From Candidatus Hodarchaeota archaeon (GTDB taxonomy: Archaea > Asgardarchaeota > Heimdallarchaeia > Hodarchaeales > Hodarchaeaceae), in assembly GCA_016840035.1 (NCBI GenBank), contig JAEOTC010000077.1, positions 20,053-84,052 on the forward strand: a DNA stretch of 64,000 bases, written 5' to 3'. The notes under the pieces are model-generated. The model saw nothing but the letters and a program-made list of their open reading frames with translations. It was not told the DNA's origin and searched no databases. Position 1 is the first letter of the stretch. The number at the start of each line of letters is the position of its first letter. Shown piece by piece: positions 8,807 through 61,606 of the stretch. The position numbers and the translations under genes were made by a program.

Positions 8807-8828
8807 TTTTGAGATTGTTTTATGTTAC

Positions 8829-10451: not shown

Positions 10452-10462
10452 TGAAAATCACC

Positions 10463-25623: not shown

Positions 25624-25635
25624 GGAAGGATCAAT

Positions 25636-25809
25636 ATGGATACACAGATTGACAAACTACTAAGTAACGGCCCTAAAGTAGTAAATATTGGATTACATTC
25701 ATTTTTTGAAGCAGCAAAAGCTCAAGGGATTCCAACAGTCCATATCAAATGGGAGCCACCCGCTCAAGGAAATCAGGAGTTATTACATTTATTAAATGAA
25801 CTACTCTAA
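25636..25809 (+). CDS. 57-aa ORF corresponding to the C-terminal tail of fused FdrA proteins
   Basis: Not in the supplied track because it is under 60 aa. MDTQ..PKVVNIGLHSFFEAAKAQGIPTVHIKWEPPAQGNQELLHLLNELL parallels the E. coli FdrA C-terminus (VAVINIGLRSF...VVHYQWSPVAGGNKKLARLLERL). It is in the same frame as fdrA, separated by one TGA. It has its own gaggaagga RBS-like element and ATG. Confidence 0.6.
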   Translation: MDTQIDKLLSNGPKVVNIGLHSFFEAAKAQGIPTVHIKWEPPAQGNQELLHLLNELL

Positions 25810-25823
25810 GCCAGAAAAAGATA

Positions 25824-34183: not shown

Positions 34184-37084
34184 ATGGTTTCTGGCAAGAA
34201 AGAGGTAATTTCTGTCCAAAATGCCCGAGTTCATAATCTCCGTAACTTATCTGTCGAAATTCCTCATAATCAACTCGTTGTGATCACAGGTGTTTCTGGT
34301 AGTGGGAAATCAAGCTTGGCATTTGATGTCATCTTCGCAGAAGGACAAAGACGTTATGTAGAGTCATTATCTGCCTATGCACGACAATTCCTTGGTAGAA
34401 TGCAGAAACCTGATGTTGATCATATAGAGGGATTAAGTCCAGCTGTTAGTATTGAGCAAAAGACTACAAGCAGAAATCCTCGTTCCACTGTTGGTACTCA
34501 GACAGAAATTTACGATTACCTCCGTCTTCTTTATGCAAATGTAGGAATTCCTCATTGCACTTCGTGTGGGAAAGAACTTAAGATTCAAACTCCTCAATCA
34601 ATTGCAAGGATGATTCGGTCATGGGAAGAAGGAACACGCATCAAAATACTTGCCCCTATCATTCGTGGAAAGAAAGGAACCCATCATACACAATGGGATC
34701 GATTGACAGAATTAGGATATGCACGAGTTAGGGTAGATAATGAAGAATATGAGCTAACAGACCCTCCAAAACTTGATAGATACAAGATTCACACTATTGA
34801 AGTAATTATTGACCGATTAATCATTAATGACCACTTGTCTAAATCACGGCTTATTGAAGCAATTGAGCAAGCCCTTGCATTAGGGGAGGGCTTACTTATT
34901 GTTACCAAGATCGAAAATGGTACAAAAAAGTCGATTGATAACTTATTTTCAGAAAACTATGCCTGTGCTGATTGTTCTCTTTCATTTGAAGAATTAAAAC
35001 CCAGAAATTTTAGTTTCAATTCTCCTTGGGGAAGTTGTCCAGAGTGTCAGGGTCTGGGAAAAACGCTGAAAATCGATCCTGATCTAATTATTACCAATAA
35101 AGATTTAAGTTTCCGAACAGGCGCCTTTATGGATAGACCATTAGAGCCCGGGACGTGGAGGTATTCCTACTACACTGCTCTCGATAAAGCTTGGGATGAT
35201 TTTTCTGTAGACACCCCTGTTAAAGATCTATCTGATGATGTAATCGAAAGACTACTTCATGGATCCAAAGGGGATATTAGTATCGTTTTTGAATCAGATA
35301 AGAGTCGATGGGAGTCAAAAAAGCATCATCACGAAGGTCTCGTAAATACGATTTGGCGTCGTTACCGTGAAACGAAATCTGATGGCTCACGAAGATATTA
35401 TGAAACCTTAATGCGAAAAGATTCTTGTGAAACCTGCCAGGGAAAGCGACTAAAACCATCCAGCTTAGCAGTGACTATCAATGATAAAAATATTGTTGAC
35501 ATCAGTAATACTACAGTTGAGCAATGCTTAGATTGGATCGAGGAAACGCGGGGAGGGTTATCAAAAACTCATCTAAAAATTGCAACGAATATATTAAGAG
35601 AAATAGAAAGTAGATTAATGTTTCTTATTTCTGTAGGATTACCGTATTTGACATTGGATCGCGCATCGATGACATTGTCTGGAGGGGAATCACAGCGCAT
35701 TCGACTGGCAACTCAAATCGGTTCAGCGTTAGTTGGAGTAACTTACGTCTTAGATGAACCCAGTATCGGATTACACGCAAGAGATCAAAATAAACTACTT
35801 GAATCTTTGAAAAACTTACGTGCCATCGGTAATACTGTGATAGCAGTTGAACATGATCACCAAACTATTCTATCAGCAGATCATGTTATTGATCTCGGCC
35901 CTGGTCCAGGAATTCATGGAGGGACTCTAGTCGCCCAGGGCTCCCCTGAAGTAATTCTTAACTCCCCAAACTCTCTAACAGGAGCTTATCTATCGGGAAA
36001 AAAAGTTATTGCAATTCCAAAATCTCGTCTCAATGGAAATGGGAAAAAGATCTCCATATTTGGAGCTAAAGAGAACAATTTGAAGAATATCGATGTGGAT
36101 TTTCCTCTTGGCAGATTTATTTGTTTAACAGGAGTATCAGGTTCAGGTAAATCGACTTTAATGAATGAAACTCTCTATAAAGGCTTAATGAAGTACTTAC
36201 ACGGTTCAAAAACACGTGTAGGAAGTCATGAGAAGTTTATTGGACTTGAGTATGTTGATAAAGTTATTAACATTGATCAAAGTCCTATAGGTAGAACTCC
36301 CAGAAGTAACCCAGCCACCTATACAGGAGTGTGGGATCATATTCGTCAATTATTTACCCAAGTAAAGGAGTCTAAACTTCGGGGATATAAACCAGGACGA
36401 TTTTCGTTTAATGTGAAAGGAGGAAGATGTGAAAAATGCCGTGGAGGAGGCCAAATTAAAATTGAACTTTCATTTTTACCTGATGTATGGATAACTTGTG
36501 AAGATTGCAAAGGTAAGCGGTATAATTCAGAAACGCTTGAAATCCGTTATAAAGGTAAGAACATTTCCGATATCCTAAATCTAACCGTTGAGGAAGGATT
36601 GGAATTCTTCGAAAAAATCCCCCCGATTAAGAAAAAATTACAAACCATTGTTGATGTAGGACTTGGGTATATCCAAATTGGTCAAGCAGCGACAACGCTT
36701 TCTGGCGGTGAAGCTCAAAGGGTCAAGTTAGCAAAAGAATTATCAAAGAAATCTACAGGAAAAACATTTTACATCTTAGATGAACCAACTACTGGTCTTT
36801 CCACACATGATATATCTTTTCTTCTGGCAGTTTTACAAAGACTTGTGAAAGAAGGAAATACTGTTGTAGTCATCGAACACAACCTTGATGTGATCAAAAC
36901 CTGTGACTGGATCGTAGAGTTAGGCCCTGAGGGTGGTGATAATGGAGGAATGGTTCTAGCAACAGGAACTCCAGAGAAAATCGCTCAAGTCGACTGTCCT
37001 ACAGGGTTGTTTTTACGAGAGATTCTGGAAGTTTACTCTACAAGCACTTCACAGAAAAAAAACAAGGTTAAAACTACTGATTAA
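34184..37084 (+). CDS. uvrA: excinuclease ABC subunit UvrA
   Basis: NARVHNLRNLSVEIP..TGVSGSGKSSLAFD, CxxC zinc modules, two ABC signatures (LSGGESQR, LSGGEAQR), and a second Walker A GVSGSGKST. Size 966 aa. Confidence 0.95.
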   Translation: MVSGKKEVISVQNARVHNLRNLSVEIPHNQLVVITGVSGSGKSSLAFDVIFAEGQRRYVESLSAYARQFLGRMQKPDVDHIEGLSPAVSIEQKTTSRNPRSTVGTQTEIYDYLRLLYANVGIPHCTSCGKELKIQTPQSIARMIRSWEEGTRIKILAPIIRGKKGTHHTQWDRLTELGYARVRVDNEEYELTDPPKLDRYKIHTIEVIIDRLIINDHLSKSRLIEAIEQALALGEGLLIVTKIENGTKKSIDNLFSENYACADCSLSFEELKPRNFSFNSPWGSCPECQGLGKTLKIDPDLIITNKDLSFRTGAFMDRPLEPGTWRYSYYTALDKAWDDFSVDTPVKDLSDDVIERLLHGSKGDISIVFESDKSRWESKKHHHEGLVNTIWRRYRETKSDGSRRYYETLMRKDSCETCQGKRLKPSSLAVTINDKNIVDISNTTVEQCLDWIEETRGGLSKTHLKIATNILREIESRLMFLISVGLPYLTLDRASMTLSGGESQRIRLATQIGSALVGVTYVLDEPSIGLHARDQNKLLESLKNLRAIGNTVIAVEHDHQTILSADHVIDLGPGPGIHGGTLVAQGSPEVILNSPNSLTGAYLSGKKVIAIPKSRLNGNGKKISIFGAKENNLKNIDVDFPLGRFICLTGVSGSGKSTLMNETLYKGLMKYLHGSKTRVGSHEKFIGLEYVDKVINIDQSPIGRTPRSNPATYTGVWDHIRQLFTQVKESKLRGYKPGRFSFNVKGGRCEKCRGGGQIKIELSFLPDVWITCEDCKGKRYNSETLEIRYKGKNISDILNLTVEEGLEFFEKIPPIKKKLQTIVDVGLGYIQIGQAATTLSGGEAQRVKLAKELSKKSTGKTFYILDEPTTGLSTHDISFLLAVLQRLVKEGNTVVVIEHNLDVIKTCDWIVELGPEGGDNGGMVLATGTPEKIAQVDCPTGLFLREILEVYSTSTSQKKNKVKTTD

Positions 37085-40291: not shown

Positions 40292-41392
40292 GTGAAACCT
40301 AGAGCTAGACAAATCTCACAGACTATTCTCTTGAGAGATGATATCGGAGCATATTTTGAAGTGGAATCGGACCAACGACGATTATATCTTAATAATTGGG
40401 CATTGATGACTTCAGACGACCGTGTGATGTGGTCTTTTGGAGATATCAACCAAGAAAAACAACAAATGACACTCGACTTTATCACGGCTCTATCCAAGCT
40501 TGGTCATGAAATTTGGGGAACAGACCAATCAATTGGTACCATTCGGTTAAGATATGCTACACCTCACCCTAGTCATGCAAGAGAAATTTTGATTATTGAT
40601 TTACATCGCAAATATAATATTGTGATATCTGATCCACTTGTTACTACAAGACTTTTACGGAAGATTACGGTAAATGATGCTCAATCTCCGGAGATTGATA
40701 ATATCCGAAGTATTCTTGCGGGATCTGCAGCAGTTACGTATTCCCAATTCTTCTCTGAAGGAAGTTCCATGGAGCCATCTTTAGTGGATGAAATTTTCCA
40801 AGAAGCAGTAACTGCTGTTACTTATAATAAGAAAGTAACTGTTGGAAACGGAGAATGTTCATTTTCTGCTCTCTCGGTTGAAGAACTCCTCTTTTTCCAT
40901 GCTTTATTGAAAAATTTATTTGAATCTCATTCCCGTTATTCGAGTTTCCCTGAAACTCGTCCTTGGGGCGTTGTACATTCTAGCACTGGAGCTCAAGTGT
41001 ATTTAGAGCATCAACCTCCGATTGACGGTGCTTTAATTAGCGCCTTTTCCTCGGTTACTGCAGCATACTGCAATCTTCTATTTTCTGCATATCCAGCCCG
41101 ACTTGTCTTTGGTTATGATGCTTCGTCAGGTATGGAATTTATATCAACGACAAACAATATTTTCGTCATAAACAATCCACAGCGTCTTTTAAAACTCCAG
41201 AGATTTGTTCGACAATGGAAAAAAGTACCTAAAAATATCAAAGAAGATCTCATTCCAGCAATGAAAGCATATTTTGTAGAATTAGCTACCTTAGAGGAGC
41301 AACAAAGGCTTAAATCTCTCGAATTTCATCAAGTAATAAATAATTTAACACATATGGGAATACGTCGAGCAAGGGAGTACAAAGAACTATAA
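40292..41392 (+). CDS. hypothetical protein (possible tandem longin/roadblock-like alpha/beta domains)
   Basis: 366-aa ORF with a GTG start; an alternative ATG lies at 40406. The alternating strand/helix pattern was judged by eye. No catalytic motif was seen. Confidence 0.5.
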   Translation: MKPRARQISQTILLRDDIGAYFEVESDQRRLYLNNWALMTSDDRVMWSFGDINQEKQQMTLDFITALSKLGHEIWGTDQSIGTIRLRYATPHPSHAREILIIDLHRKYNIVISDPLVTTRLLRKITVNDAQSPEIDNIRSILAGSAAVTYSQFFSEGSSMEPSLVDEIFQEAVTAVTYNKKVTVGNGECSFSALSVEELLFFHALLKNLFESHSRYSSFPETRPWGVVHSSTGAQVYLEHQPPIDGALISAFSSVTAAYCNLLFSAYPARLVFGYDASSGMEFISTTNNIFVINNPQRLLKLQRFVRQWKKVPKNIKEDLIPAMKAYFVELATLEEQQRLKSLEFHQVINNLTHMGIRRAREYKEL

Positions 41393-44257: not shown

Positions 44258-45022
44258 TTGGAAACAATAGTAACAGTAATAGGAGTCTTTCTAGCTCTAG
44301 GAATATTTACATATTTAGCAGCAAAACATACTGTCAAAACCAATTCTTATCATGCATTATTAGCAAGTTATATTCTGTTTCTTACCTTAGCTCAATTCTT
44401 TGCAGCTAAGATAACCCATTTTGACCTTGATTTTCTATTTTTGGGAACTGTTTATGCCCCCGTAGGAGTCATTGTATTCCCATTTACCTTACAAATTACT
44501 GACATGGTGAACGAGAAATTTGGAAGACGTGCAGTATACAATATGATTTGGATCGCTTTGGTAAGCCAAATATTGATGGTTATCTTCTTAATATTCGCTA
44601 TAAATTTACCTAATGAAGTTAAACCTACCGACCCCTTAGCTGGATTTGCAGTCGTTCCAGCATTTACATTAGCCTCTTGGATTAGCTTTTTTATCAGTGA
44701 ACGGTTCGACGCGTGGATTTATGACAATCTAAGAATATGGATTCAAAAGAAAACACAGAATGATACCGATTGGTGGAAGTACCTTTGGATTCGCAATGTC
44801 TTTAGTGACCTCCTTAGCCTAGGACTCGATTCTCTGATCTTCGTGCCACTCGGTTTCTATGTTTTTCTTTCAATTCATAGTTATTTTGATCCTAACGTAA
44901 TCCCTTATACCCTTAATGAAGTTCAAAGGCTTATTACAGGACAGATTATTATCAAATGGTTTTTAGGAATAATTGATACCCCGTTCATGTATCTAACGCG
45001 TTGGATATATGATAAAAACTAG
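44258..45022 (+). CDS. yhhQ: YhhQ/DUF165 (VUT) family transporter, queuosine-precursor (preQ0/preQ1) transporter-like
   Basis: FPFTLQITDMVNEKFGRRA and SWISFFISERFDAWIYDNLR...IRNVFSDLLSLGLDSLIF parallel conserved YhhQ blocks. Six or more TM helices. TTG start. Confidence 0.7.
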   Translation: METIVTVIGVFLALGIFTYLAAKHTVKTNSYHALLASYILFLTLAQFFAAKITHFDLDFLFLGTVYAPVGVIVFPFTLQITDMVNEKFGRRAVYNMIWIALVSQILMVIFLIFAINLPNEVKPTDPLAGFAVVPAFTLASWISFFISERFDAWIYDNLRIWIQKKTQNDTDWWKYLWIRNVFSDLLSLGLDSLIFVPLGFYVFLSIHSYFDPNVIPYTLNEVQRLITGQIIIKWFLGIIDTPFMYLTRWIYDKN

Positions 45023-45028
45023 GGGATT

Positions 45029-47191
45029 CTATAATTGGGAGATCTTTTCCAAGAAATCTTTAATAGGAACCTTCTCCCTCTTTCTTTCTAACGCATGATA
45101 GTACCAGGTGAGATATTTGAGACCTATACCCATCTTCAGAACGAATTCATCGATTTCTGAAATATCTTCTGATGATCTCTTCAAGAGTGTTAGTTTCTCA
45201 CGAATTTCAACCTTGGTTTTTTGAATAATTTGAGTCCAAGTATTAGGTGTAACTTTATCTAAATGTTTTCTGCAAACGAAAATCACATCAATTCCAATAC
45301 TGTTGGTTCCATGTATCTGAGTGCTTGTTTTCATCTCAGAATGAACTGGATAAATGTTCTTAATGAAAAATTTATGTTCTACTAAAGTTTTTATTAAAAT
45401 GATCCACGCATCCAGTTCTTTATGATGGAATGTGAATATTAACAGGCCCTCGTCTTTTAATACCCTAGCAATTTCTTTGAAAACGGATGAGAGCTCCTTT
45501 CCATACTGCTCATCGAATTTTCCTCTCTTCACATTTTTTACTATCTCAGTTTCCTTTGGTGAGTATTCAGGGATAAACCAAGAATAGTGATCTTTCAATG
45601 CCAGGCGTAACCAGACATAATAGAAGTCTGCAAGTTCCGCATATTGTACATTATCATAGTAGGGGGGATCTGTAACCACTAAATCAATACTTCTTTTAGA
45701 AAGAGGAATATCTGATGAGGAATGACAATAGAGGGAAATTTCCTTTATTTCGGAGTGAGGACTTTCTGTAGATGAGGTCGATGAGATAGGTCGCGAAATT
45801 GGATTTTTCATCTGTTTTCGTTTAGATTTCCCTGATGAATCAATATAAACTTCATATGGAGCTTTTGAGTACTTTTTTACACTTATCATCTTCTTGAAGA
45901 AGTTCTTGAATGTGCCTGTTCCGTATTTTGTTCCCCACGGATTGTTCTCACACGGATTTAGTGTTGCAGGGTATGCATGCTTTCTAAACAAGTTATAAAC
46001 ATAATGATTTTTCCTATGGTATTCACATAACAAATTGTTATACTCTAAAGCGGTTGAAAACGTAATAAGTAAAAATTCTCTACAATTTCTATCTTCAATA
46101 TCGAGTATAGCTGATAATAATTTACCTAATGAAAGGAGCTGCCGTGTATTGAACATTTCGGTGAAATGAAATATTTGATGGTTTAGTAATTCATTTGTTT
46201 TTGCTCCTGGGGGTATTTTTTGAGCTGGTAAAGGTAATTCACTTTTCAATAAATTGTACTCGAATTCGGCTCTCTTGTATAGTTCTATATCATTCTCACT
46301 AGCTGATTTAAAATCTCGAATGTTACATTCACTACAATAATATTCAATTGCATACATTCTTTCATTTGGTTTACCTTGTTGTTTATTCGCTTTAACAATA
46401 CGTCCAGAGTGTGTACATGAAGGGCAATAATATCGTCCTCTCTTAACAAGGAAAGAAGATGATTGAAACCTTGTAGAACACTGTGGGCATCTTGAAGAAT
46501 CTTTTCGCTTTGCTATGAATAGATGATTACAATCTGGACAGATAACGTATTGTGTTGTGTCATCTTTCCTATTAATTGCAAATAGAAAGCTACGATACAG
46601 AGGAATTTTATGACGACATTCTGTACATCGTATTTCCTTAATCCAGAAGTAGTACATAACATCAGCACTAGAATCACACCGATTACAGTCCGTTTTATAA
46701 AAACGTTGAATATCCTCCTTTACTTTGAGAGAAATATCCTGAAAAACCGTTTGAAGATGATCCAAATCCACATCTTCAATTTCTTTCTTGACCGTAAACC
46801 ACGCTACAGGGTTTAAATCACCTCCAATAACTCTAGAGTATCCTAATCTCAGTGCTTCAATAATAGTTGTCCCTCCTCCCATAAATGGATCCAAAATTGT
46901 CTTATCTGAAAAAGAATGATCTTTTAAATATAAATCCCAGAATTTACTTTCCTTGGAGCTTTCTTCATGATTATTAGCGTCGACACTTGCATAGATTAAA
47001 ATGGATCGAAAAACAGAACCCAATCTACGAGCAAACCATTTATGCAGAGTTAATATTGGACGATAATAGCGTTTTGCACTACTTTCACGATACGCAATCC
47101 GACTAACTAATGTAAACGGAAAATATCGTTCAATCGCTCTTTCATTACCTAGGTTTTGGGTTTCAAGGGTACTTGGTGGTGATTTACGCAT
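45029..47191 (-). CDS. Zn-ribbon-containing adenine-specific DNA methyltransferase (COG1743 / DUF1156-type), paralog B
   Basis: N-terminal YYRPILTLHKWFARRLGS (DUF1156-like). SAM motif LDPFMGGGTT. Several CxxC pairs (CNRC, CTEC, CPDC, CPQC, CPSC, CSEC). Catalytic VVTDPPYYDNVQY. Confidence 0.85.
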   Translation of the reverse strand: MRKSPPSTLETQNLGNERAIERYFPFTLVSRIAYRESSAKRYYRPILTLHKWFARRLGSVFRSILIYASVDANNHEESSKESKFWDLYLKDHSFSDKTILDPFMGGGTTIIEALRLGYSRVIGGDLNPVAWFTVKKEIEDVDLDHLQTVFQDISLKVKEDIQRFYKTDCNRCDSSADVMYYFWIKEIRCTECRHKIPLYRSFLFAINRKDDTTQYVICPDCNHLFIAKRKDSSRCPQCSTRFQSSSFLVKRGRYYCPSCTHSGRIVKANKQQGKPNERMYAIEYYCSECNIRDFKSASENDIELYKRAEFEYNLLKSELPLPAQKIPPGAKTNELLNHQIFHFTEMFNTRQLLSLGKLLSAILDIEDRNCREFLLITFSTALEYNNLLCEYHRKNHYVYNLFRKHAYPATLNPCENNPWGTKYGTGTFKNFFKKMISVKKYSKAPYEVYIDSSGKSKRKQMKNPISRPISSTSSTESPHSEIKEISLYCHSSSDIPLSKRSIDLVVTDPPYYDNVQYAELADFYYVWLRLALKDHYSWFIPEYSPKETEIVKNVKRGKFDEQYGKELSSVFKEIARVLKDEGLLIFTFHHKELDAWIILIKTLVEHKFFIKNIYPVHSEMKTSTQIHGTNSIGIDVIFVCRKHLDKVTPNTWTQIIQKTKVEIREKLTLLKRSSEDISEIDEFVLKMGIGLKYLTWYYHALERKREKVPIKDFLEKISQL

Positions 47192-47757
47192 CTTGGTTCA
47201 TAAGTCTCTGATTGTCCCGAATTTTCAATTAAGACTAGAGGACTATTATAAGGACTGGGCTTTCCATCTAACAATCTTTGTGTAAGGACAGCCCACCGAT
47301 TACAATTTGGAAATTCACATATAGCAGTTAAGCGTGTTACATGGTGTGCTCTTCCAACTAATGAAGGCATTGGTCCAAATGGTTCTCCTCTGAAACTTAA
47401 GAGCAATCCACAGACTATCACATGATAATCCTTCTGTAGTAATTCTTCGATGACCTCAACAAGATCATCTGCAAAGAATTGTGCCTCATCAACTCCCACG
47501 AACTTACAATCTAGAGATTCTAAATAAGATAAAATCTCTGCTGGATTATTCTCATCCACGATAATCGCATCTAATTGCATATCACTCCCTCGTGATGCAA
47601 TCCCCCGTTCTCGGGTATTAACTGCGGGTTTGAAGACAATTCCTTTAATATCAGAATAACGAAGTTCGTTAAACATCCGAATTAAATACTCACTTTTACC
47701 CGATTTCATTGGCCCAAATATAGCTTCGAGATATCCAGGTTTATAGATTTCTGGCAA
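47149..47757 (-). CDS. tdk: thymidine kinase (TK1 type)
   Basis: P-loop GPMKSGKSE, VGVDEAQFF, VCGLLLSFRGEPFG, and Zn-site cysteines ICEFPNC...YEPRC. Size 202 aa. Confidence 0.9.
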   Translation of the reverse strand: MPEIYKPGYLEAIFGPMKSGKSEYLIRMFNELRYSDIKGIVFKPAVNTRERGIASRGSDMQLDAIIVDENNPAEILSYLESLDCKFVGVDEAQFFADDLVEVIEELLQKDYHVIVCGLLLSFRGEPFGPMPSLVGRAHHVTRLTAICEFPNCNRWAVLTQRLLDGKPSPYNSPLVLIENSGQSETYEPRCVNHHQVPLKPKT

Positions 47758-47820
47758 AATTTTGACCTCTTTTTGTGGTTGATGAAGGATATTCCTCTCT
47801 TTCTGAGTAGGTGGTTTTAA

Positions 47821-49905
47821 CTATTTCTTCAGTCTAAAAATCTCATCTAAGGTTTCTTGAAGAGTCGTATCATTTCCATGGAGGAGATAGATAGAGATTA
47901 ATGGTAATAATTTAGCCAATAATTTTTCCCATTCACCCTCTGAATTCAGGTGTTGTTTCTCGTTAAATTCCTGAACTTCGCTTTGGATTTCTCTAAATAC
48001 ATGCTTTCCATTCCCTTTATTTCTCAAATGATCATTTTTCGTCATTTTTTTGGCTACTATAATAATATCAATATCGGTTCCAGCCACAGGTCGCGCTTGG
48101 AATTCACTTATAACAGGGAATGCCCTTTCAAGTACAAATTTGCTTTCATTTAAAGCTCTGATGATCAAAGCCCATGCTTTTGAATTTGAATGGTGAAAAG
48201 TGAATATCAACTGTGAATCTTCTTTTAATACGCGATGACACTCTTTAAAGACCTCAATTAATTGAGAAACAAATAATTTCTTATTTTTCTGCAGTCCAAT
48301 CTCTTCATCATTGACAATTGTAGATGCTTTAAACCAGGGATATGTTGTTTGTAAGATTTGCTGCAGCCATACATAGAAAAAGCTTGCCAACTCAGAATAT
48401 TGTATATAATCAAAGTATGGGGGATCTGTTAAGACTAAATCAATTGATTGATCTGGAATTCCATATTTTTTTAAATCGACTGATGTCCCTGATATTAGAA
48501 GTGTATCCGAATAAGTACTGCTGACAAGTTCTTGGAAATTCTCCATATTTCTCGCAAATATGCGATCACCCACTATAGGAACTCGTTTAATCTTATTATC
48601 CTGCATTATTATCTCAAATGGAGCTTCACAATATGCTTTTGCTCTTTGTATTCTTTCCAGATAAGTTACATAAGTTCCATTTCCTTTATCGGTTCCCCAG
48701 ACGTTATTCTCAACATATTGCAAAGGTACCAGAAAGGATTGAAAATTAAATACATTTACGATTTGTTTCATCGTATAGTTATAGGGGCAAATCACAGTAT
48801 GGAATTCTAAACAACTTGAAAATGCGCTCAGAAAAAACTCCTTTAGATTCTGATCAGTAATTGAAGAGATTGACTCTAGAAGTAAACTCAAACAATAAAG
48901 CTGTCGAGCATTAAATAGATCAGAATAGTACTTAAATCCATAATTTTTAAGATTTTTAACATTCGGACCATGAGGAGGGAGTTTTTCTCGCGGAAAGAGT
49001 AGAATATCTTTCTGTTCTTCAAACAAACTTTCTACTCTCTCATAATTCAAAATATCTTGTTCATTGACCGGTTTATATCCGCGGAACTTGCATTTCTTAC
49101 AGTAAAATTCGATAGCGATTTGTCTCGAAGAAAATGATTTGAAATCCTGTTTAATTATATCCACTAAACGATGTTCACTCTTGCATTTGGTGCATGAAAA
49201 TATTTTTTTTCTACAGTTTCCCACTCTCGGAATAAAACTTTGTCCACACTTTGTACAATGTGTTTGTGAATCAAGACTTTCTGTAGAGTAGAATAGGCCA
49301 TCACATTTTGGACAAATTACACATGTCTCTATACTCTTGCGTTGTTTTTTACCTATTATGTAATATTTGAATAGATCTTCACGAGACCGACAATCAGGAC
49401 ATTGAATCGTACGGACCCAGAAAGTATACATAATATCAGCATGTGTAGACCCACATTCAGAACATTCCGTTTGATAAAAACCCTTAATTCGTTTCCCAAC
49501 ATTATTAGCGATAGAATTCCAAGTATCTATGAATTTTTCTTTATTTAATTGATCCAGTTCTTTTTTTGTTGTGAACCAAGCAACTGGATTCAGATCAATC
49601 CCTATAGACTTTACTCCAAGCCTATTAAGCTCAACTAAGCTTGTTCCACCGCCACAAAAGGGGTCTAACATTATTGTATCTGAAAAGTTATGGTTTTTGT
49701 AGAATGATCCCTCTTCATTTTCCGTAGAGCTAAAAAGAGGAAGATCGGAAAAGTAAGCTAAACCCAAAGCCCTAAATGTAGATCCAGGCCGTCGTGCCCA
49801 AGATTTGTGAATTGAATATACAGGTCGATAGAATTGTCGCCTTTGTGATTCGACTTTTGCAATCTTTTCAACTAGGTTTATTGGGAAATTTTCACCAATG
49901 GGCAC
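47821..49905 (-). CDS. Zn-ribbon-containing adenine-specific DNA methyltransferase (COG1743 / DUF1156-type), paralog A
   Basis: FYRPVYSIHKSWARRPGS, LDPFCGGGTS, CxxC pairs (CSEC, CPDC, CPKC, CTKC, CTKC, CKKC), and LVLTDPPYFDYIQY. Confidence 0.85.
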   Translation of the reverse strand: MPIGENFPINLVEKIAKVESQRRQFYRPVYSIHKSWARRPGSTFRALGLAYFSDLPLFSSTENEEGSFYKNHNFSDTIMLDPFCGGGTSLVELNRLGVKSIGIDLNPVAWFTTKKELDQLNKEKFIDTWNSIANNVGKRIKGFYQTECSECGSTHADIMYTFWVRTIQCPDCRSREDLFKYYIIGKKQRKSIETCVICPKCDGLFYSTESLDSQTHCTKCGQSFIPRVGNCRKKIFSCTKCKSEHRLVDIIKQDFKSFSSRQIAIEFYCKKCKFRGYKPVNEQDILNYERVESLFEEQKDILLFPREKLPPHGPNVKNLKNYGFKYYSDLFNARQLYCLSLLLESISSITDQNLKEFFLSAFSSCLEFHTVICPYNYTMKQIVNVFNFQSFLVPLQYVENNVWGTDKGNGTYVTYLERIQRAKAYCEAPFEIIMQDNKIKRVPIVGDRIFARNMENFQELVSSTYSDTLLISGTSVDLKKYGIPDQSIDLVLTDPPYFDYIQYSELASFFYVWLQQILQTTYPWFKASTIVNDEEIGLQKNKKLFVSQLIEVFKECHRVLKEDSQLIFTFHHSNSKAWALIIRALNESKFVLERAFPVISEFQARPVAGTDIDIIIVAKKMTKNDHLRNKGNGKHVFREIQSEVQEFNEKQHLNSEGEWEKLLAKLLPLISIYLLHGNDTTLQETLDEIFRLKK

Positions 49906-50144: not shown

Positions 50145-50945
50145 ATGGGTGATTTCGAATATCCATCCCAGAAAGCTAATTTTTATTCCTATATTTCAAC
50201 GAATCGTGATCTAATTAAGATTTCTGAAGAGCCTTCGGGTATTATTTCAGGATTTGCCTTTGGTCATATAACTAATCAACAAAAAGCAAGAATTAGAGCG
50301 ATTTTTGTTGAATCTACTTGGAGAAATAAAGGAACTGGAACAAAACTACTGAAATCACTGGAAAGTGAGTTCTTAACTCGAAATCCTAGTCTCACTTACT
50401 TATCTGTGCGTATTCCAGAAGAATATTTCACATCTCAACCCTTTTTTGAAAATCTAAATTTTGAAATAGTTACCAAGATAAATGGATACGTAACGAATAA
50501 TCTCTCCTTTCCTTTCTCAGTTAATAATCAGATTTCCGTTCGAAAAGCAAAGAAATCTGACATTGAGAGTATCATGCAAGTTGAGAAAGAATGTTTTTCA
50601 AAATTTTGGCAGATTGGCCCGGCAAGATTTGCACAAATGATAAATGAAAAAACTGAAATCTTATTTGTTGCTCTTTTGAACAATAAAGTTCTCGGTTATA
50701 ACTTTAATACGGTATCTCATCGCTATCAGAGTGGTAACTATGTTCGAATTGCTACTCTCCCTGAATACAGACAAAAGAACATCGCAACTACTCTTACTGC
50801 TCATGCTTTCAAATGGTTCCAGTCTATGCGGGTCAAGGAGATAATTCTTTCGACTTATGCAGATTCTTCTTTTCATAACTCGATGTATCAGAAATGGGGA
50901 TTCTCAAAGTATGAGGAAGAAATCATCCTTGCACGAGAATATTAA
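50145..50945 (+). CDS. tandem GNAT N-acetyltransferase (N-terminus probably extends upstream of the first ATG)
   Basis: Two acetyl-CoA motif-A regions (IFVESTWRNKGTGTKLL and IATLPEYRQKNIATTL). The upstream in-frame sequence IRSIKKGDLPSVERLYIQC mirrors the start of domain 2 (VRKAKKSDIESIMQVEKEC). Confidence 0.75.
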   Translation: MGDFEYPSQKANFYSYISTNRDLIKISEEPSGIISGFAFGHITNQQKARIRAIFVESTWRNKGTGTKLLKSLESEFLTRNPSLTYLSVRIPEEYFTSQPFFENLNFEIVTKINGYVTNNLSFPFSVNNQISVRKAKKSDIESIMQVEKECFSKFWQIGPARFAQMINEKTEILFVALLNNKVLGYNFNTVSHRYQSGNYVRIATLPEYRQKNIATTLTAHAFKWFQSMRVKEIILSTYADSSFHNSMYQKWGFSKYEEEIILAREY

Positions 50946-54979: not shown

Positions 54980-56620
54980 TTAATCCCCATTTGCGCACGA
55001 AAGGGATGTGCGAAATAGTCCAAGTTTATGTCGTGAGCCAGAGTGGATTTCAACCTCTTCCACATCGATTATCCCACTCTCATATACTGAAATGACATTG
55101 TAAGAGTTCAGACGACGTGATCGGATTTTCTTGCTCGAAAAGGTTCCTGCATTAACAAATACCGTTTTTTCCACTTGCATTGTTGTAGCATAATGCTCCA
55201 ATCCTGATAAAACAAGGGGTACATTATGAGATGTTAAAAATTGAATAACATCGCCTGCATCCTTTACTGCTCTTTTGAAGTAACTTCGTGGAATAGGTAG
55301 AACAGAATGATGCATGGCTACCAGGAAAAATTTGTAGCTGCTATAACAATCATATTCATGCTTTATCATACGCATGCGACTACGGCCCACATGACCTGAT
55401 GAGTCAGCACCTGTATTAATTCCAAGAACCCGAACAGTAGGATCCTCATATATTGGATCTAGGGGGCCAACCTGTTGTACCCATAATTCTCTTCCAAATG
55501 GTTGTAAATCTCGAGTGCCAGGAACAATAAGAAATGGTACACTATACTCCCTCAATTCACGGATTTTTTGTTTAGCTAAGGCAAAATCCTCTGGATAGGA
55601 ATCATTTGTGAGGTCCCCTGTATGAATTAAGACATTAGGATTTTCTCGTAGCATCATTTTAATGCCTAAATCATATATTTTTGGTAAAAAGTCATTTCCA
55701 TTGGTAAAGTGTGTATCAGAGAACTGACAGATTTTTGTTATCAAGTTTTCGCCAGGAACTAAGTAACTTGATTGTATCGCTAGCTCTCCCTTCCATATTT
55801 GCTGAGTTTGTTGATTAGCAGTTAAAAATTTTGAATATGTATCAATTCCATGGAATTGTACATTTATATCTTTATCTTTGACAATAATATCGACAAATGT
55901 ATGTCCTGCGGTGCCCCTAGTCTTAAAACTGCTGAAAGTACCTGAATTTATCAGTAATGCTCTTCGCTCACCATTTGATAACGAAAATATATTTGGATAA
56001 TGTCTATGTGCCGTAATTAAAACATCTATACCTGCTTTCCAGATAACCTGAGAAACATCTCCTGCATCTAGGATCATTGATCTTTCTCTTCCGGTTGAAG
56101 GTATCGGTAATAAATGATGATGGAAGCAAAGTATTTTTAAGACATCGTCAGGAATTGTTTCGAGTTCTGCAATGGCTTCAATACCACGATCCCCAATTCG
56201 TCCAATATTTTCATCTGGTTCGGAGGAATCAATCCCCAAGATGACCATATTTCCCCCAGTTTCCCGTGTATCAATGAAAAACTGTCTTTCCCCAAAGAAT
56301 CTCTTCCAGAGTTGATCCCCGATATTCCTCATGTCATGATTACCAGGAATTGTATATAGTTCTCCAACAGTAGGAAAATGAGTTTGAAGGATTTCCTTTG
56401 ACAATTCAAAATCTTCGAACGTTCCTGAGTCTGTAATGTCACCTAGATGTAACACTAAGGCCTTCGGGTTCTTTTTCAACCGTTTATTAATTAAAATTGC
56501 TCCTGTTTCAAACGCATCTTGATGAAACAAACCAGTGAACTTTGAAATATGTGTATCAGAAAATATTAATAATTCTTCAAGTCTGGACTTTCTTTTAGAT
56601 CGTTTCCCTATCTGAATCAC
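54980..56620 (-). CDS. tandem (duplicated) calcineurin-like metallophosphoesterase
   Basis: Domain 1: FSDTHIS, LGDITD, PGNHD, FHHHL, AHRH. Domain 2: FSDTHFT, TGDLTN, PGTRD (degenerate GNHD), MHHSV, SGLEH. Confidence 0.8.
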   Translation of the reverse strand: MIQIGKRSKRKSRLEELLIFSDTHISKFTGLFHQDAFETGAILINKRLKKNPKALVLHLGDITDSGTFEDFELSKEILQTHFPTVGELYTIPGNHDMRNIGDQLWKRFFGERQFFIDTRETGGNMVILGIDSSEPDENIGRIGDRGIEAIAELETIPDDVLKILCFHHHLLPIPSTGRERSMILDAGDVSQVIWKAGIDVLITAHRHYPNIFSLSNGERRALLINSGTFSSFKTRGTAGHTFVDIIVKDKDINVQFHGIDTYSKFLTANQQTQQIWKGELAIQSSYLVPGENLITKICQFSDTHFTNGNDFLPKIYDLGIKMMLRENPNVLIHTGDLTNDSYPEDFALAKQKIRELREYSVPFLIVPGTRDLQPFGRELWVQQVGPLDPIYEDPTVRVLGINTGADSSGHVGRSRMRMIKHEYDCYSSYKFFLVAMHHSVLPIPRSYFKRAVKDAGDVIQFLTSHNVPLVLSGLEHYATTMQVEKTVFVNAGTFSSKKIRSRRLNSYNVISVYESGIIDVEEVEIHSGSRHKLGLFRTSLSCANGD

Positions 56621-56803
56621 TTCCTGATAATAAATAGTTCCTTATTTGGGGATTGGAAGATAAATTTAACTTAAAGAATGATATTCGCTTCTTTGAATTT
56701 ATATAGTTCTTCCTTTATGTTAATAAATACTCCCTTTTCTATGCTACTAACAGTAATCGTAAAACAAGCGATTGACCATTATCGTTACCTTGGAGAGAAA
56801 TTC

Positions 56804-58930
56804 ATGACATCGAAAAAATGTCCTCGCTGTAAAGGAAGTGGAAAGATAGCAACAAAAACAAAGAAAAAATGCCCAAAATGTCGTGGATTAGGATCTACAA
56901 AATTGCAAATAGGAGGAGGAGCTCCTAAAGGCAAAGACATTTGCTCAAAGTGTAAAGGTTCTGGTAAAATCGAATTTACTAAAGAAAAAGCTTGTCCTAC
57001 CTGCTCAGGAGAAGGGATTCTTGAAATTAAATGTCCAATATGTGGAAATTCATTGAAAAATAAAGAGAAGGAGATCTGCAACTCATGCAGGGATAAAACC
57101 TCAATCCACCAATTAACCCCTCCTGTTACAAAACAAACAGTTGAGTTTAACAAGCTTTATAGCAGTAATGTTGTTACGATCGTGGATTTTGGTTATTTCG
57201 TACAATTAGCTCCAAAAATTGAAGGATTAATTAGAAATAAACAATTTTCAGGAAAGAAGGATGATCAAGTAATTGTTAAACTTCTTAATAAAAAGGGAGA
57301 TAAGTTTGAATTTGAAGAAGTGAAAATTCGAAATATTGACCAGTTTCCAATTGTAAGGGTACATGATCCAATTCCATTGGAAAAAATTCATCAGCAACGA
57401 GAGGTTGGAGCTTATATCTCATTTATGGCACGGATTGAGAATATCCGACAAATTCCAAATGGACCAAAGGTATTTTCATTACTTGATGAAACTGGAAAAA
57501 TCGAGGCAGCAGCGTTCCGCTTAGATTTTGTAGATTCGATGTCTGTTGGCGATATTGTTGAAGTAGCAGGTCAATTCAATGTTCATCGTGGAGCAGAACA
57601 GGTTGAAATCTTGAACATGTTTATCGTAGAAGAAGCTTACTCTAATGCATTTACAAAAAAACTTGATAAACACCTAGATTCAATTAGTGAACCGCAGCAA
57701 ACAGATTTTCTCGTGAAATCCAATGTTTTAACTCTCCTTCAACCAAAATTTATTTTAGTTGCAAAAAGGTTACGTCGTGCGTTTTTTGAATCTCAACCCA
57801 TTATTATTCGTCATCATAATGATTGTGATGGTATCTGTGCAGGGATTGCAGTGGAACTAGCTCTACGGCAATTATGGTTGGATACATATCATCAATTAGA
57901 CGAAGATAAACTTAGACACCTGATTAAAAGAACAGTTAATAAACCACCCTTCTATGATCCATTAGATGCGGTTAGAGATGTAAATTTTGCATTAGAGGAC
58001 GAGAATCGTTTTGGAGATAAACTTCCTATCATAATTATGCTTGATACTGGCAGTAGTGAAGAAAGTCTATTTTCCTACAAACTTCTCCAGACTTATAATA
58101 TGGAAGTCTTAGTTGTTGACCACCATTTCCCTTCAGCTTCTGTTCAAGAAGCAGTTAGCATTCATCTCAACAATTATTATGCTGGTGGAGATTACAATAT
58201 CTGTACTGGGATGCTTGGCGTTGAATTAGCTCGGTTTATCAATCCTACGGTTACTGATGACATAATTCACATTCCTGCAATTTCAGGCATCGGTGATAGG
58301 GTGAAAGGTGAGGAATTTGATCAATATTTGGAATTCGCTAAGCAACGTAACTATACTGAGTCTTTTCTCTCCGATATTGCGATTGCAGTCGATTATCAGG
58401 CATATTTCTTAAAATTCTCTCCTGGAAGAATTCTGTTAACTGATCTTCTAGGGATTAAAGGGACTGATGAACGTCAAATAGCCTTTGTAAAACTTCTTGC
58501 AACAGAAGCTCGTGACCTTCTAGAAAAACAACTACATATTTCCTTGGAATACTGCCAAGAAACAGAACTACCTAATGGAATACACTTAGCTATACTAGAT
58601 GTAGAACAATTTGCTAGTCGGTTTGATTATCCTCCTCCAGGTAAAATTACAGGAAGTCTTTTTGACCATCTTGGGGGACAAAAACCAGATACTCCATTAG
58701 TAACGATTGGTTTAGGCCCTGATTTTGCCATCTTTAGGTCGCAACATGTCAAACTCGATTTCCCAAACCTTGTGAGAGCCTTAGCAGATGACTTGCCTCA
58801 TGCAAACATTGAGGGAGGAGGTCATGAAATCGTTGGAAGTTTAAAGTTTATTTCTGGAGCAAAAACTGAATTTATGAACGTGATCCAAGAAAAATTGACA
58901 ATTATCAGTGTCTCTCCTTCGGAGAATTAG
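56804..58930 (+). CDS. RecJ-like DHH/DHHA1 phosphoesterase fused to a DnaJ-type Cys-rich Zn finger, an S1-like domain and an OB fold
   Basis: Six CxxC pairs, of which the first four are CxxCxGxG-like (CPRCKGSG, CPKCRGLG, CSKCKGSG, CPTCSGEG) and the last two are plain (CPICGN, CNSC). S1-like VVTIVDFGYFVQL..IEGLI. OB-fold-like YISFMARIENIR...GDIVEVAG. DHH motifs HHNDCDG and VVDHH, and DHHA1 EGGGHE. The track ORF starts at 56678, but the ATG at 56804 has a ggaga RBS-like element and removes an implausible leader. Confidence 0.75.
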   Translation: MTSKKCPRCKGSGKIATKTKKKCPKCRGLGSTKLQIGGGAPKGKDICSKCKGSGKIEFTKEKACPTCSGEGILEIKCPICGNSLKNKEKEICNSCRDKTSIHQLTPPVTKQTVEFNKLYSSNVVTIVDFGYFVQLAPKIEGLIRNKQFSGKKDDQVIVKLLNKKGDKFEFEEVKIRNIDQFPIVRVHDPIPLEKIHQQREVGAYISFMARIENIRQIPNGPKVFSLLDETGKIEAAAFRLDFVDSMSVGDIVEVAGQFNVHRGAEQVEILNMFIVEEAYSNAFTKKLDKHLDSISEPQQTDFLVKSNVLTLLQPKFILVAKRLRRAFFESQPIIIRHHNDCDGICAGIAVELALRQLWLDTYHQLDEDKLRHLIKRTVNKPPFYDPLDAVRDVNFALEDENRFGDKLPIIIMLDTGSSEESLFSYKLLQTYNMEVLVVDHHFPSASVQEAVSIHLNNYYAGGDYNICTGMLGVELARFINPTVTDDIIHIPAISGIGDRVKGEEFDQYLEFAKQRNYTESFLSDIAIAVDYQAYFLKFSPGRILLTDLLGIKGTDERQIAFVKLLATEARDLLEKQLHISLEYCQETELPNGIHLAILDVEQFASRFDYPPPGKITGSLFDHLGGQKPDTPLVTIGLGPDFAIFRSQHVKLDFPNLVRALADDLPHANIEGGGHEIVGSLKFISGAKTEFMNVIQEKLTIISVSPSEN

Positions 58931-59164: not shown

Positions 59165-59761
59165 TTGGATTATGTCATAAAGGAGTATTTACCTGAGTAT
59201 GAAGAGCAATGGTTAACATGCTTGAAAGAAGCATTCTACACATCATCTTATGTTGACACAATAATCAAACTCAAACCACGATATGAAAATCCTTTATTAG
59301 AACTTATGATGTTAAAAGGAAATAAAGTAGTTGCTTTTCTGGATATTGACGTAGTGCCACCATCAGAACAGTTATGTGGAGAAAATGTGGAAAATTCTGC
59401 CCAAATATCCATTATTGGTGTTCATCCCAAATATAGACGACAAAAACTAGCAACTCGTCTGTTTGAATACGCTTTCTCATATATTGAGAAGAATACCAGC
59501 ATTTCTAGGTTAGAGATTTCTTTTCGTGAAGATGAGGGAATGTTAAACTGGTTACAGGCTCTGAAATTCTCGAGATGTGCCAAATATTATGAAGTTAGTT
59601 TTAGTCAGGATTTCTTTATAAAATACAGAATAGATCTTCCTTTTGGAATAAGTCCCAGTATTCTAACCGGATTTGTAGATCAATCTGGATTTCGACTCTT
59701 ATCAGTAGATCATCCTCCAGAGAAGACATATCCTTTCATAGTAATGGAGAAAATCTTGTAA
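59165..59761 (+). CDS. GNAT N-acetyltransferase
   Basis: Motif A IIGVHPKYRRQKLATRLFEYA. TTG start. Confidence 0.7.
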   Translation: MDYVIKEYLPEYEEQWLTCLKEAFYTSSYVDTIIKLKPRYENPLLELMMLKGNKVVAFLDIDVVPPSEQLCGENVENSAQISIIGVHPKYRRQKLATRLFEYAFSYIEKNTSISRLEISFREDEGMLNWLQALKFSRCAKYYEVSFSQDFFIKYRIDLPFGISPSILTGFVDQSGFRLLSVDHPPEKTYPFIVMEKIL

Positions 59762-59764: not shown

Positions 59765-61105
59765 CTAATCTTTTCTAAAAATAAGACAGTACTGATGGCA
59801 CCGGTTACCTACCCAAGCATTATTTACCCCCAATGCTAATAACCGCTTATCATCTTGCAACCAGATTTTTTCATCTTTAAGAACCCAACCAGTTTTTGAT
59901 AAAGCAATAGCAGTATCGTATGCTAAAGGGAATAGTCTTCCATTGGTAAAAACATTATTTGTAATGACCACTAGATACCCTTTGGGTTTCATGAACTTAT
60001 ATGTTTGCGTAAATATCTTTTTCTGAGTATTTATAAAGAGATCATAATCTTTGATATTCGCAAGATCGAATTCATCCATCTCACTGTACTTTGTATCTAA
60101 TCCTTTATCTTTTCGTTCTTTCTGTCGCATTTCTGTGCGATCTAATTGACTCCAATAAGGAGGAGAAGTAATAATCAAATCTATGCTTGGAAATTCTTTC
60201 TTTGCCCATATCTCTGAAAACTTCAAGCTATCTCCTTGAATAACTTCCCAGTAACTTTTATCGGTTGTAGTATATAATGGGTTATATGGAAGGGTTGGAA
60301 GGTGTGAAAGACGATCTTTACTAATCTCGACATAACGCTCAGATAATTCTACTCCAATTGCGCTCCTATTACATTGTTTAGCAGCAATTAACGTGCTCCC
60401 AGTTCCTAAAAATGGATCTACAACTAATTCTCCTGGTTTAGTAAAAAATGTAATAAATTTTCGTATCAATTTTTCTGGGAATTTTGCTGGATGAAGAATT
60501 TCATGTTTCTTACGAGGCGGAGGCCTTACAACAATCCACGATTTAGTCATACGGAGCCATTCTCGTCCAGTAAGAAGATTCAACTTGTTTTTGTTACTTA
60601 GAATGCCAAAAGGTTGCTTTTTCCTTCCTCTTCTCAACCGAACGATATCTGATCCCTGCCCTTGTTGCTCCTCAGGTCGGAAAATATGATACGTCTTTTC
60701 TTCTGTTTCATTTGCAATGTTGATTAAGTATTCCTCAACCTCTTGATTATATAGGGTTGTTAATTGTGATCTAACTGTTTTTATGACCGAAAGGTAGGTT
60801 GAAAGCGTTTGTTGCACGATAGTATTTTCTTGAACTGCGATAAAGATAATCGGTGTTTCCAGATCTATATGAAAGCACGAAAATTCCTGGTTTTGTACCT
60901 TTAATTCAATTTTGAAACAAAATAGACCATTATCTCTTATAAGATCAAAGAATTTCTTGAATTTCGCACTTTCAGGAAATTTAAGAAGATCAGCAAGAGA
61001 AATTATTTGAATTAGTTTGTGAGGATGGTAAATAAGTTCAAAGTACTCACGTATTTCATGTTCAACTACATGGGAGGTATTAGATGAAGAATTCATTCGT
61101 CTCAA
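59765..61105 (-). CDS. N6-adenine/N4-cytosine DNA methyltransferase with an uncharacterised N-terminal region of about 170-190 aa
   Basis: HPAKFPEKLIRKFI..GELVVDPFLGTGSTLIAA...GVEL (SAM-binding region) is followed by the catalytic ITSPPYW and a C-terminal DEKIW...CHQYCLIFRK block. Confidence 0.85.
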   Translation of the reverse strand: MRRMNSSSNTSHVVEHEIREYFELIYHPHKLIQIISLADLLKFPESAKFKKFFDLIRDNGLFCFKIELKVQNQEFSCFHIDLETPIIFIAVQENTIVQQTLSTYLSVIKTVRSQLTTLYNQEVEEYLINIANETEEKTYHIFRPEEQQGQGSDIVRLRRGRKKQPFGILSNKNKLNLLTGREWLRMTKSWIVVRPPPRKKHEILHPAKFPEKLIRKFITFFTKPGELVVDPFLGTGSTLIAAKQCNRSAIGVELSERYVEISKDRLSHLPTLPYNPLYTTTDKSYWEVIQGDSLKFSEIWAKKEFPSIDLIITSPPYWSQLDRTEMRQKERKDKGLDTKYSEMDEFDLANIKDYDLFINTQKKIFTQTYKFMKPKGYLVVITNNVFTNGRLFPLAYDTAIALSKTGWVLKDEKIWLQDDKRLLALGVNNAWVGNRCHQYCLIFRKD

Positions 61106-61228: not shown

Positions 61229-61606
61229 ATGGCAGATTATTGTGTAAATTGTGGTCAAAGAATGAAACCAGAAGATATATTCTGTAGTAACTGTGGAAGT
61301 GAAGTAGAAAAACGTGATACATCCTATCGCTCTAGTTCGCAACCTAGAACGGACTATACGAATCGAGGAATGACGACTCAACCTAAATTATATCGTTCAC
61401 GAAATAATCGATGGTTAGCAGGAGTTTGTGGAGGTCTTGGAAAACACTTCAATATTGACCCTACTCTCGTACGAATCGGATTTATCCTTGCCACATTAGG
61501 TTATGGAACAGGTATTATACTGTACATTGTATTAGCCATTTTTATTGAGGAAGAACCTATAGACGTAGAATACTCTCCCCCAACGAAAGGGAATCCACCC
61601 TATTAA
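61229..61606 (+). CDS. zinc-ribbon plus PspC-domain membrane protein
   Basis: CVNCGQ...CSNCG zinc ribbon. PspC block NRWLAGVCGGLGKHFNIDPTLVRIGFIL followed by a TM helix. Confidence 0.75.
   Translation: MADYCVNCGQRMKPEDIFCSNCGSEVEKRDTSYRSSSQPRTDYTNRGMTTQPKLYRSRNNRWLAGVCGGLGKHFNIDPTLVRIGFILATLGYGTGIILYIVLAIFIEEEPIDVEYSPPTKGNPPY

Follow-up and report, generated by a model that had tools for sequence, protein, structure and literature searches.

A thymidine kinase gene between two short-form DUF1156-type methyltransferase genes in a Hodarchaeales archaeon: probably an accident of gene order

The locus and the question

Why should a nucleoside-salvage kinase be encoded between two paralogous methyltransferases, and overlap the gene of one of them? 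This arrangement occurs in a 64,000-nt stretch (the window) of the genome of a Candidatus Hodarchaeota archaeon (assembly GCA_016840035.1, contig JAEOTC010000077.1, positions 20,053 to 84,052 of the forward strand), where a gene for a TK1-type thymidine kinase (TK) lies between those of two methyltransferases (MTases), here called MTase-A and MTase-B. An initial annotation had offered three explanations: a DNA-modification module of viral or mobile origin, a heteromeric or dual-specificity methylation system tied to dTMP supply, and a novel defence or anti-defence cassette. The probable answer is plainer: A and B would be independent, stand-alone, short-form MTases beside a relocated TK, and their neighbourhood an accident of gene order, with no TK-dependent modification or defence system. 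The list of open reading frames (ORFs) gives three minus-strand genes with exactly the coordinates, gap and overlap first annotated:

MTase-A, 49905-47821, minus strand, 694 aa, GTG start
Spacer between MTase-A and TK, 47758-47820, minus strand, 63 nt
TK (TK1-type thymidine kinase), 47757-47149, minus strand, 202 aa, TTG start
Out-of-frame overlap of the TK 3' end and the MTase-B 5' end, 47149-47191, minus strand, 43 nt
MTase-B, 47191-45029, minus strand, 720 aa, ATG start

Gene order in related loci

About 30 related loci were compared, drawn from a scan of GTDB genomes with a profile of the B clade, from contigs carrying TK homologs and from a metagenome scan with a TK profile; exact-sequence look-ups with the window's own TK, MTase-B and P0001 matched no contig on record. 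Their gene orders fall into the following classes:

Class i, A-TK-B: the window, L001, L003 and L094; TK 85-100% identical; overlaps of 43, 43 and 34 nt (window, L001, L003)
Class ii, GNAT-A-TK-Vut_1, no B: L080, L081/82, L095 and L096; TK 68-77% identical
Class iii, TK-B-Vut_1, no A: a JGI contig with P0140 and P0004 (the P0140 contig); TK 64% identical; 4-nt overlap
Class iv, A-PhoU_div(DUF47)-PHO4(PiT)-B: L004-L008, L018 and L034; same strand, spacers of 22-84 nt (Pfam)
Class v, A-B directly adjacent, no insert: L010
Class vi, dNK-TK-PfkB salvage cluster: L083-87 and L097; TK at most 62% identical

A and B stand together on one strand in L001, L003-L008, L010, L018, L034 and L094, and besides the window eight distinct related loci have TK next to A, B or both. 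The initial annotation had named conservation of the TK-MTase linkage in relatives as a test of its proposal; the linkage does recur in those loci, but it is limited to one Hodarchaeales subclade, where the whole neighbourhood of ~12 kb is equally syntenic. What is conserved is the pairing of A with B among syntenic housekeeping genes; the slot between them varies in content, and TK fills it only in a particular lineage. The linkage of TK to the MTases is recent, and unrelated flanking genes show synteny that is at least as strong.

In the seven sister loci of class iv (in L004 at 5999-12217), A and B bracket PhoU_div and PHO4, and the four genes look like one operon. Two different inserts of a 'precursor supply' kind occupy exactly the same slot. 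The class vi clusters also carry genes for a Bmp/ABC nucleoside transporter, a phosphopentomutase-like protein and a nucleoside phosphorylase; one of them, L087, comes from the same metagenome-assembled genome (MAG) as L007 of class iv.

History of the pair and of the kinase

In a quick neighbor-joining (NJ) tree of the MTases, A and B form sister clades with congruent internal branching, and the TK-bearing loci make up one nested subclade. In the corresponding TK tree, the MTase-linked TKs all belong to a single clade nested among the salvage-cluster TKs, which points to one relocation of TK; at the locus, B appears to have been lost at least twice and A once, with TK kept. The TK is a vertically inherited Asgard TK1, with the salvage cluster of dNK, TK, PfkB and nucleoside transporter as its older home.

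The following course of events would account for these patterns. An old duplication of a short-form DUF1156/COG1743 MTase would have given A and B, which the Hodarchaeales/Heimdall-group lineage would have kept as orphan enzymes without restriction or defence partners, and the two would most likely act independently, each on one fixed target. A normal salvage TK would have moved once, in one Hodarchaeales subclade, from the dNK-TK-PfkB and Bmp/ABC cluster into the slot between A and B, a slot that in sister lineages is taken by the PhoU_div and PiT phosphate-transporter pair. In the window, A, TK and B would be read as one transcript, with SD-like (Shine-Dalgarno-like) sites serving A and TK, and B would be translated by coupling.

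Several points weigh against this account. In the subclade that carries it, TK is never found without an adjacent MTase, and both types of insert are packed tightly and on the same strand as the MTases, so that the genes may be linked by regulation, for instance by expression coupled to growth or replication. The trees are quick ones without support values. The 'loss' of A or B refers to the locus only, and a copy elsewhere in those genomes is possible. The fold and the DPPY motif are compatible with m2G/m6A RNA methyltransferases as well (the top Foldseek matches are generic and include Trm11), and both the substrate, DNA m6A, and the operon structure are inferred.

The two methyltransferases

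MTase-A and MTase-B are 36% identical over 634 aa (E 3e-126), a similarity far beyond chance which makes them divergent paralogs, as had been annotated. The motif blocks described as shared are all present in the alignment (FYRP, ARRxGS, LDPFxGGGT, DLNPVAWFT, CxxC pairs, FNxRQL, TDPPYxDxxQY and LIFTFHH), with one detail to correct: the block before GS is HKWFARR in B and HKSWARR in A. MTase-A has motif I as LDPFCGGGTS and motif IV as TDPPYF, with three Cys4 Zn ribbons between the two; in MTase-B the motifs read LDPFMGGGTT and TDPPYY, and the ligands of its three Cys4 Zn ribbons are C169/172/189/192, C218/221/235/238 and C256/259/286/289.

Both proteins match PF01555 in two pieces (Pfam), at motif I near residue 100 and at DPPY near residue 505. 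MTase-B alone gives weak Pfam matches to D12-class MTases (PF02086) and to PF06634 (DUF1156), the latter at 18.9 bits, under the 24-bit gathering cutoff, and A has no PF06634 match at E <= 0.01. Weak UPF0020/Trm11-type matches were also obtained from Pfam. The best PADLOC models for A and B are HmaB (E 8e-34 for B), PglXI and DUF1156_MTase (E 1e-22 and 9e-19 for the two paralogs), with matches to type II MTases in addition, and full-length phmmer matches to PF06634-annotated proteins have E-values of 1e-170 to 1e-190. With an N-terminal DUF1156 block, motif I, a Zn-ribbon insert and motif IV DPPY, A and B belong to the broad DUF1156/COG1743 methyltransferase superfamily, and the earlier family assignment holds, if with these as distant relatives.

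Membership in the narrower anti-phage group is another matter. The NCBIfam model NF042963 (anti-phage-associated DUF1156 protein) scores B at 124.5 and A at 113.8 bits against a cutoff of 1000, with matches that are fragmentary over its 960 positions. Island-type relatives have 880-990 aa, and their alignments to B stop ~150 residues short of their own C-termini. Because the NF042963 score is far below the cutoff and the C-terminal ~150 aa are absent, A and B are classed as short-form members of the superfamily, outside the anti-phage equivalog.

The AlphaFold2 model of B (pLDDT 80.8, pTM 0.84) has one Rossmann MTase core, formed by residues ~95-140 and ~485-645 and split by an insert of ~350 residues that consists of the three Cys4 Zn ribbons and a helical domain. 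A sequence search of the PDB returned motif-level matches only, to the beta-class MTases CcrM, MboIIA and TTHA0409, and a Foldseek search of the model against the PDB returned only generic Rossmann MTases at E > 1e-3, including the tRNA MTase Trm11, which hint at neither the substrate nor the nature of the Zn-ribbon insert.

Motifs I (DPFxGGGT) and IV (TDPPY) are invariant in 12/12 A-clade and 12/12 B-clade sequences. Identity in the Zn-ribbon region is 0.62 within A, 0.50 within B and 0.34 between A and B, and within each clade the insert is as conserved as the catalytic core. Such a pattern would be expected of two enzymes with different, fixed targets, and it is unlike that of specificity-switching restriction-modification (RM) methylases or of pairs of a catalytic and a dead subunit. 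The target is most probably N6-adenine in DNA, judged by family membership and the DPPY motif.

Two other arrangements were considered and rejected: the motifs I and IV kept in both paralogs speak against a catalytically dead partner in the manner of METTL3/14, and the occurrence of each paralog alone at the locus speaks against an obligate A+B heteromer.

The thymidine kinase

The kinase matches PF00265 with E 2.5e-32 and 112.6 bits (gathering cutoff 20.6), which makes it a TK1-type enzyme, and it scores 169.5 bits against NF003296, narrowly under the cutoff of 183. TK1 enzymes salvage thymidine by the reaction of thymidine and ATP to dTMP. The window's TK shows canonical TK1 features only: a P-loop GPMKSGKS, a DEAQFF motif and the Zn ligands C147, C152, C190 and H193. 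Invariant columns are G15, K21, E91, A92, F95, C147, C152, C190 and H193. Asgard orthologs are 56-89% identical.

Homologs align over residues 1-202, with the N-terminus up to the P-loop conserved, and the TTG start at 47757 is supported because orthologs align from residue 1. The NCBI-record version of the protein (P0121, 186 aa) begins at the internal Met17 and cuts the first Gly of the P-loop (window 47710-47757).

The TK1 enzymes of Heimdall-group salvage clusters (dNK-TK-PfkB-Bmp/ABC) are orthologous to it and 57-62% identical, with all catalytic and Zn residues conserved. The difference lies in position: in the window's subclade TK sits between or beside the MTases, with overlapping stop and start.

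Gene junctions and expression

Two SD-like sites can be read from the window sequence, and their function would follow from their positions:

SD-like GGTGA, 49917-49913, minus strand, 7 nt 5' of the MTase-A GTG
SD-like GAGGT, 47769-47765, minus strand, 7 nt ahead of the TK TTG, inside the A-TK spacer

In L001 and L003 the A-TK spacers are similar in length to that of the window, and GGAGG precedes the TK start. By sequence reading and a list of T runs, neither an oligo-T run nor an obvious AT-rich TATA-like box occurs in the spacer at 47758-47820. A scan for sigma-70 promoters and terminators found fewer sites than in shuffled sequences; its consensus is bacterial and does not apply to archaea.

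No SD-like site precedes the MTase-B start in the window sequence. As had been annotated, ATG 47191 is the only start available to MTase-B: its reading frame is closed by a stop two codons upstream, and no other ATG, GTG or TTG occurs from there to the first conserved block (residues 20-25, I20-E21-x-x-F24-P25, invariant columns). The overlap with TK is forced, because no other MTase-B start codon lies ahead of the conserved block. It spans the last 12 codons of TK, which are non-conserved, and the start of MTase-B as far as codon 14, a segment modelled with pLDDT <50 (residues 1-14).

In the window A, TK and B probably form a single transcript. Translation of MTase-B probably depends on ribosomes that finish TK, through coupling or re-initiation, since its start lies 43 nt inside TK and has no SD-like site. 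The co-transcription with translational coupling envisaged in the initial annotation is plausible, with the overlap kept in L001 and L003 and 4 nt long in the P0140 contig.

Comparison with known systems

DUF1156/COG1743 MTases sit in defence systems centred on DUF499 (PMC7641849; PMC11232893; bioRxiv 10.1101/2025.10.09.681413). The control loci with long-form relatives, in Fuchsiella (L012), Haloferax (L014) and Halosimplex (L053), all have the MTase close downstream of a DUF499 ATPase gene, adjacent to it in L053 and with one ~300-aa gene between in L012 and L014. The window differs. Pfam and PADLOC scans covered nearly all its ORFs of at least ~125 aa (17479-17874 and 23624-23947 were left out), and among these there is no DUF499 ATPase, DUF3780, SNF2 helicase or helicase-nuclease, other nuclease or integrase, in agreement with the earlier statement that the usual defence partners and a nuclease are absent. 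Nor does an RM system suggest itself: beside the MTases there is no cognate endonuclease or specificity subunit, the neighbours being Vut_1, HhH-GPD, GNAT, histidine phosphatase and ACS proteins.

The MTases of Hma (HmaB) and BREX-related (BR, types 1-3) systems, to which PglXI/BrxXI of BREX type 3 is related, show near full-length homology to A and B, with 33-41% identity to the long forms, and have in common with them the DUF1156 block, motif I, the Zn-ribbon insert, the helical domain and the DPPY motif IV. A and B differ from them in length (~700 aa against 880-990 aa), in an NF042963 score of about one tenth of the cutoff and in their vertical inheritance, with duplication and synteny in Heimdall-group genomes in place of carriage on islands. 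Membership of A and B in an Hma or DUF499-centred BR system is thus not supported, with no gene for a DUF499 ATPase, an SNF2 helicase-nuclease or the DUF3780 protein of type 2 among the ORFs scanned in the 64 kb.

In the haloarchaeal loci L053, L055, L063, L072, L074 and L077, two to three paralogous DUF1156 MTases of the long form are encoded within 6-8 kb of one another; in L053 the DUF499 ATPase and a sequence that weakly matches the phage-integrase family accompany them. Clustering of family members therefore occurs in a defence-island context too.

Halobacteria have conserved orphan MTases (Fullmer et al., 2019, as cited in PMC10609329). Like these and other orphan DNA MTases such as Dam and CcrM, A and B stand alone without a nuclease, are vertically conserved across their lineage and have a conserved recognition module; the likeness extends to amino-MTase motifs of beta/alpha type and to the motif-level PDB matches named above. 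They differ by the DUF1156 N-terminus, the three Zn ribbons, the insert between motifs I-III and IV and the occurrence as a paralogous pair.

The closest parallel in other Asgard archaea is a short DUF1156-type MTase of the Thor/Loki group, which has ~680-730 aa, is 37-40% identical to B and has a conserved housekeeping neighbourhood without defence partners; it differs in being single copy, in lying in another neighbourhood and in forming a separate NJ clade. By reading of the sequences, without a family scan, the neighbours in these loci (L019-L047) look like T and A components of an ECF transporter, a metallophosphoesterase, a small kinase-like protein and an MtnA/eIF2B-like isomerase, and no defence genes are evident beside the MTase by the same reading, for which no family scan was made.

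Alternative explanations

The best surviving alternative, which we nevertheless consider rather unlikely, is that A and B are amino-methyltransferases of substrates other than DNA, such as tRNA or rRNA, recruited from a DNA MTase family for housekeeping modification. Vertical, lineage-wide inheritance, housekeeping synteny and a non-variable recognition insert would all suit such a role, as would the UPF0020/Trm11-type matches and the Foldseek matches to Trm11, which are as good as those to DNA MTases. In addition, the structure of HmaB is reported to be closest to a tRNA MTase, and protective DNA methylation by HmaB was not detected (PMC11232893). The top profile matches, however, are to DNA MTase families (PF01555, D12-class, and PADLOC HmaB, PglXI and type II), the closest outgroups are DUF499-centred RM-like methylases predicted to be N6-adenine DNA MTases, and A and B show no domain for RNA binding, such as THUMP or PUA.

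A quite improbable alternative, close to one of the first proposals, makes A, TK and B one functional DNA-modification module, in which methylase activity is tied to dTMP supply or TK feeds a pathway of modified thymidine. The tight same-strand packing, the conserved TK/B overlap and the presence of TK next to one or both MTases in all examined loci of the subclade speak for it, and Zn-ribbon inserts that have diverged between A and B yet are conserved within each are compatible with two specificities. Gene content at the locus speaks otherwise. Sister lineages keep A and B with PhoU_div and PiT or with nothing between them, and have TK in its canonical salvage cluster; TK persists after the loss of either MTase; the unrelated flanks (GNAT, Vut_1, HhH-GPD, YbaK, GGR) are equally syntenic, so that adjacency carries no specific signal; and the kinase shows nothing beyond an ordinary TK1. 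A heteromeric or dual-specificity system linked to dTMP is not upheld by these observations.

It is likewise doubtful, and given about the same low credence, that A and B form a domesticated non-defence methylation system, in the archaeal lineage nearest to eukaryotes, whose operon repeatedly captured genes of DNA-precursor supply (TK in one subclade, PhoU/PiT in others), with methylation co-expressed with and functionally coupled to DNA synthesis or growth. If it were so, the locus would be a replication-linked epigenetic module instead of two unrelated orphan enzymes and a hitch-hiking kinase. A version confined to regulation, in which a growth- or replication-linked MTase operon repeatedly recruited TK and PhoU/PiT for co-expression, seems very unlikely. 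Both inserts concern nucleotide or phosphate supply and both are on the MTase strand, at spacers of 22-84 nt or in overlap; but there are two kinds of insert only, a pattern that could be coincidence, L010 has no insert, and PiT and PhoU serve a general phosphate function.

Least probable of all is a role in defence or anti-defence, as a degenerate or novel element, whether a remnant of an Hma/BREX-related DUF499 system or a viral or mobile cassette: family-level homology to HmaB and PglXI, another orphan-like PF01555 MTase 10 kb away and the common carriage of MTases and TK by viruses favour it, but the 64-kb window contains none of the partners listed above and no tRNA or Rfam element, its GC is flat at 34-39%, IMG/VR has no relative of the MTases and only relatives of TK that are 27-32% identical, the flanks are cellular, housekeeping genes, the orthologs are syntenic across divergent Heimdall-group genomes, and the NF042963 scores, the missing long-form C-terminus, the vertical inheritance and the conserved putative target-recognition region go against defence, so that neither the viral or mobile origin nor the defence or anti-defence cassette of the initial annotation is borne out.

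Significance

If A and B are independent short-form MTases beside a relocated TK, as is favoured here, they would represent an undescribed mode for the superfamily: short proteins without partners, passed on vertically throughout the Asgard archaea, with a duplication in the Heimdall/Hodarchaeales group. DUF1156/COG1743 methylases are otherwise discussed only as parts of DUF499, Hma and BREX-related islands, and the papers found in literature searches on DUF1156, COG1743 and Asgard methylation treat the defence-island context only, with no description of the Asgard pair; here a short-form branch would belong to the core chromosomal genes of Asgard archaea. Matches of defence-finding programs to HmaB or PglXI in Asgard genomes are likely false positives. 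To our knowledge, almost nothing is known of methylation in the closest archaeal relatives of eukaryotes, and A and B are concrete candidates for housekeeping methylation, epigenetic or of RNA, in these organisms. The TK would be a textbook example of a salvage gene that relocates and gains an overlapping junction, an ordinary enzyme and not a new system.

Host chromosome and other genes of the window

The top homologs of A, TK and B all come from Hodarchaeales/Heimdall-group Asgard MAGs, and MTase-A orthologs at 51% identity or more come from such MAGs only. The window is ordinary housekeeping chromosome of a Hodarchaeales/Heimdall-group Asgard archaeon. Its genes encode a topoisomerase, EutA, UbiA prenyltransferases, xanthine-dehydrogenase-type and AOR oxidoreductases, enzymes of sugar and acid metabolism, ABC exporters, a penicillin amidase, UvrA, a histidine kinase, a geranylgeranyl reductase (GGR), YbaK, GNATs, HhH-GPD, Vut_1, a histidine phosphatase, an ADP-forming ACS, a subtilase, a RecJ-like protein and a further PF01555 MTase. 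The synteny of the locus is anchored by two of these genes:

Vut_1 (YhhQ-like transporter), 44258-45022, plus strand, PF02592 at E 1.4e-33, convergent with MTase-B; B-side anchor
Double-GNAT acetyltransferase, 50145-50945, plus strand (Pfam), divergent from MTase-A; A-side anchor

Vut_1 is in the same position in L001, L003, L005-L010, L018, L034, L064, L080-82, L095 and L096. The double GNAT keeps its position in L001, L003, L080-82 and L095 and is ~2.5 kb farther away in L004-6, L018 and L034.

The third amino-MTase (59765-61105, minus strand, 446 aa) matches PF01555 at E 1.6e-30 and PADLOC models of type II and orphan MTases. A GNAT gene (59165-59761) and the gene of a Zn-ribbon/PspC protein (61229-61606) lie on either side of it, there is no nuclease in its vicinity, and it looks like another orphan.

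A 750-aa protein encoded at 56678-58930 (plus strand) combines a DnaJ-type CXXCXGXG Zn finger, an OB fold and a DHH domain (RecJ/GAN-like nuclease), and a double metallophosphoesterase gene at 54980-56620 adjoins it. A bacterial-type UvrA of 966 aa (34184-37084, plus strand) is encoded alone, with no UvrB or UvrC seen in the window. A xanthine-dehydrogenase-type molybdoenzyme with a 2Fe-2S subunit is encoded at 12482-15284, and a CoA-ligase-like protein beside AllG (oxamate carbamoyltransferase subunit) at 24043-27086; together these genes may be a purine/allantoin catabolic set.

Among the window ORFs without a Pfam match none has a PADLOC match (27109-27651 was screened only at E <= 1e-5). 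They include 8829-10451 (minus strand, 540 aa), 479-1513 (minus strand, 344 aa) and 40292-41392 (plus strand, 366 aa). The last of these has a positional counterpart of 327-350 aa (no Pfam match on record) beside a YbaK-like gene in L080, L081 and the P0140 contig.

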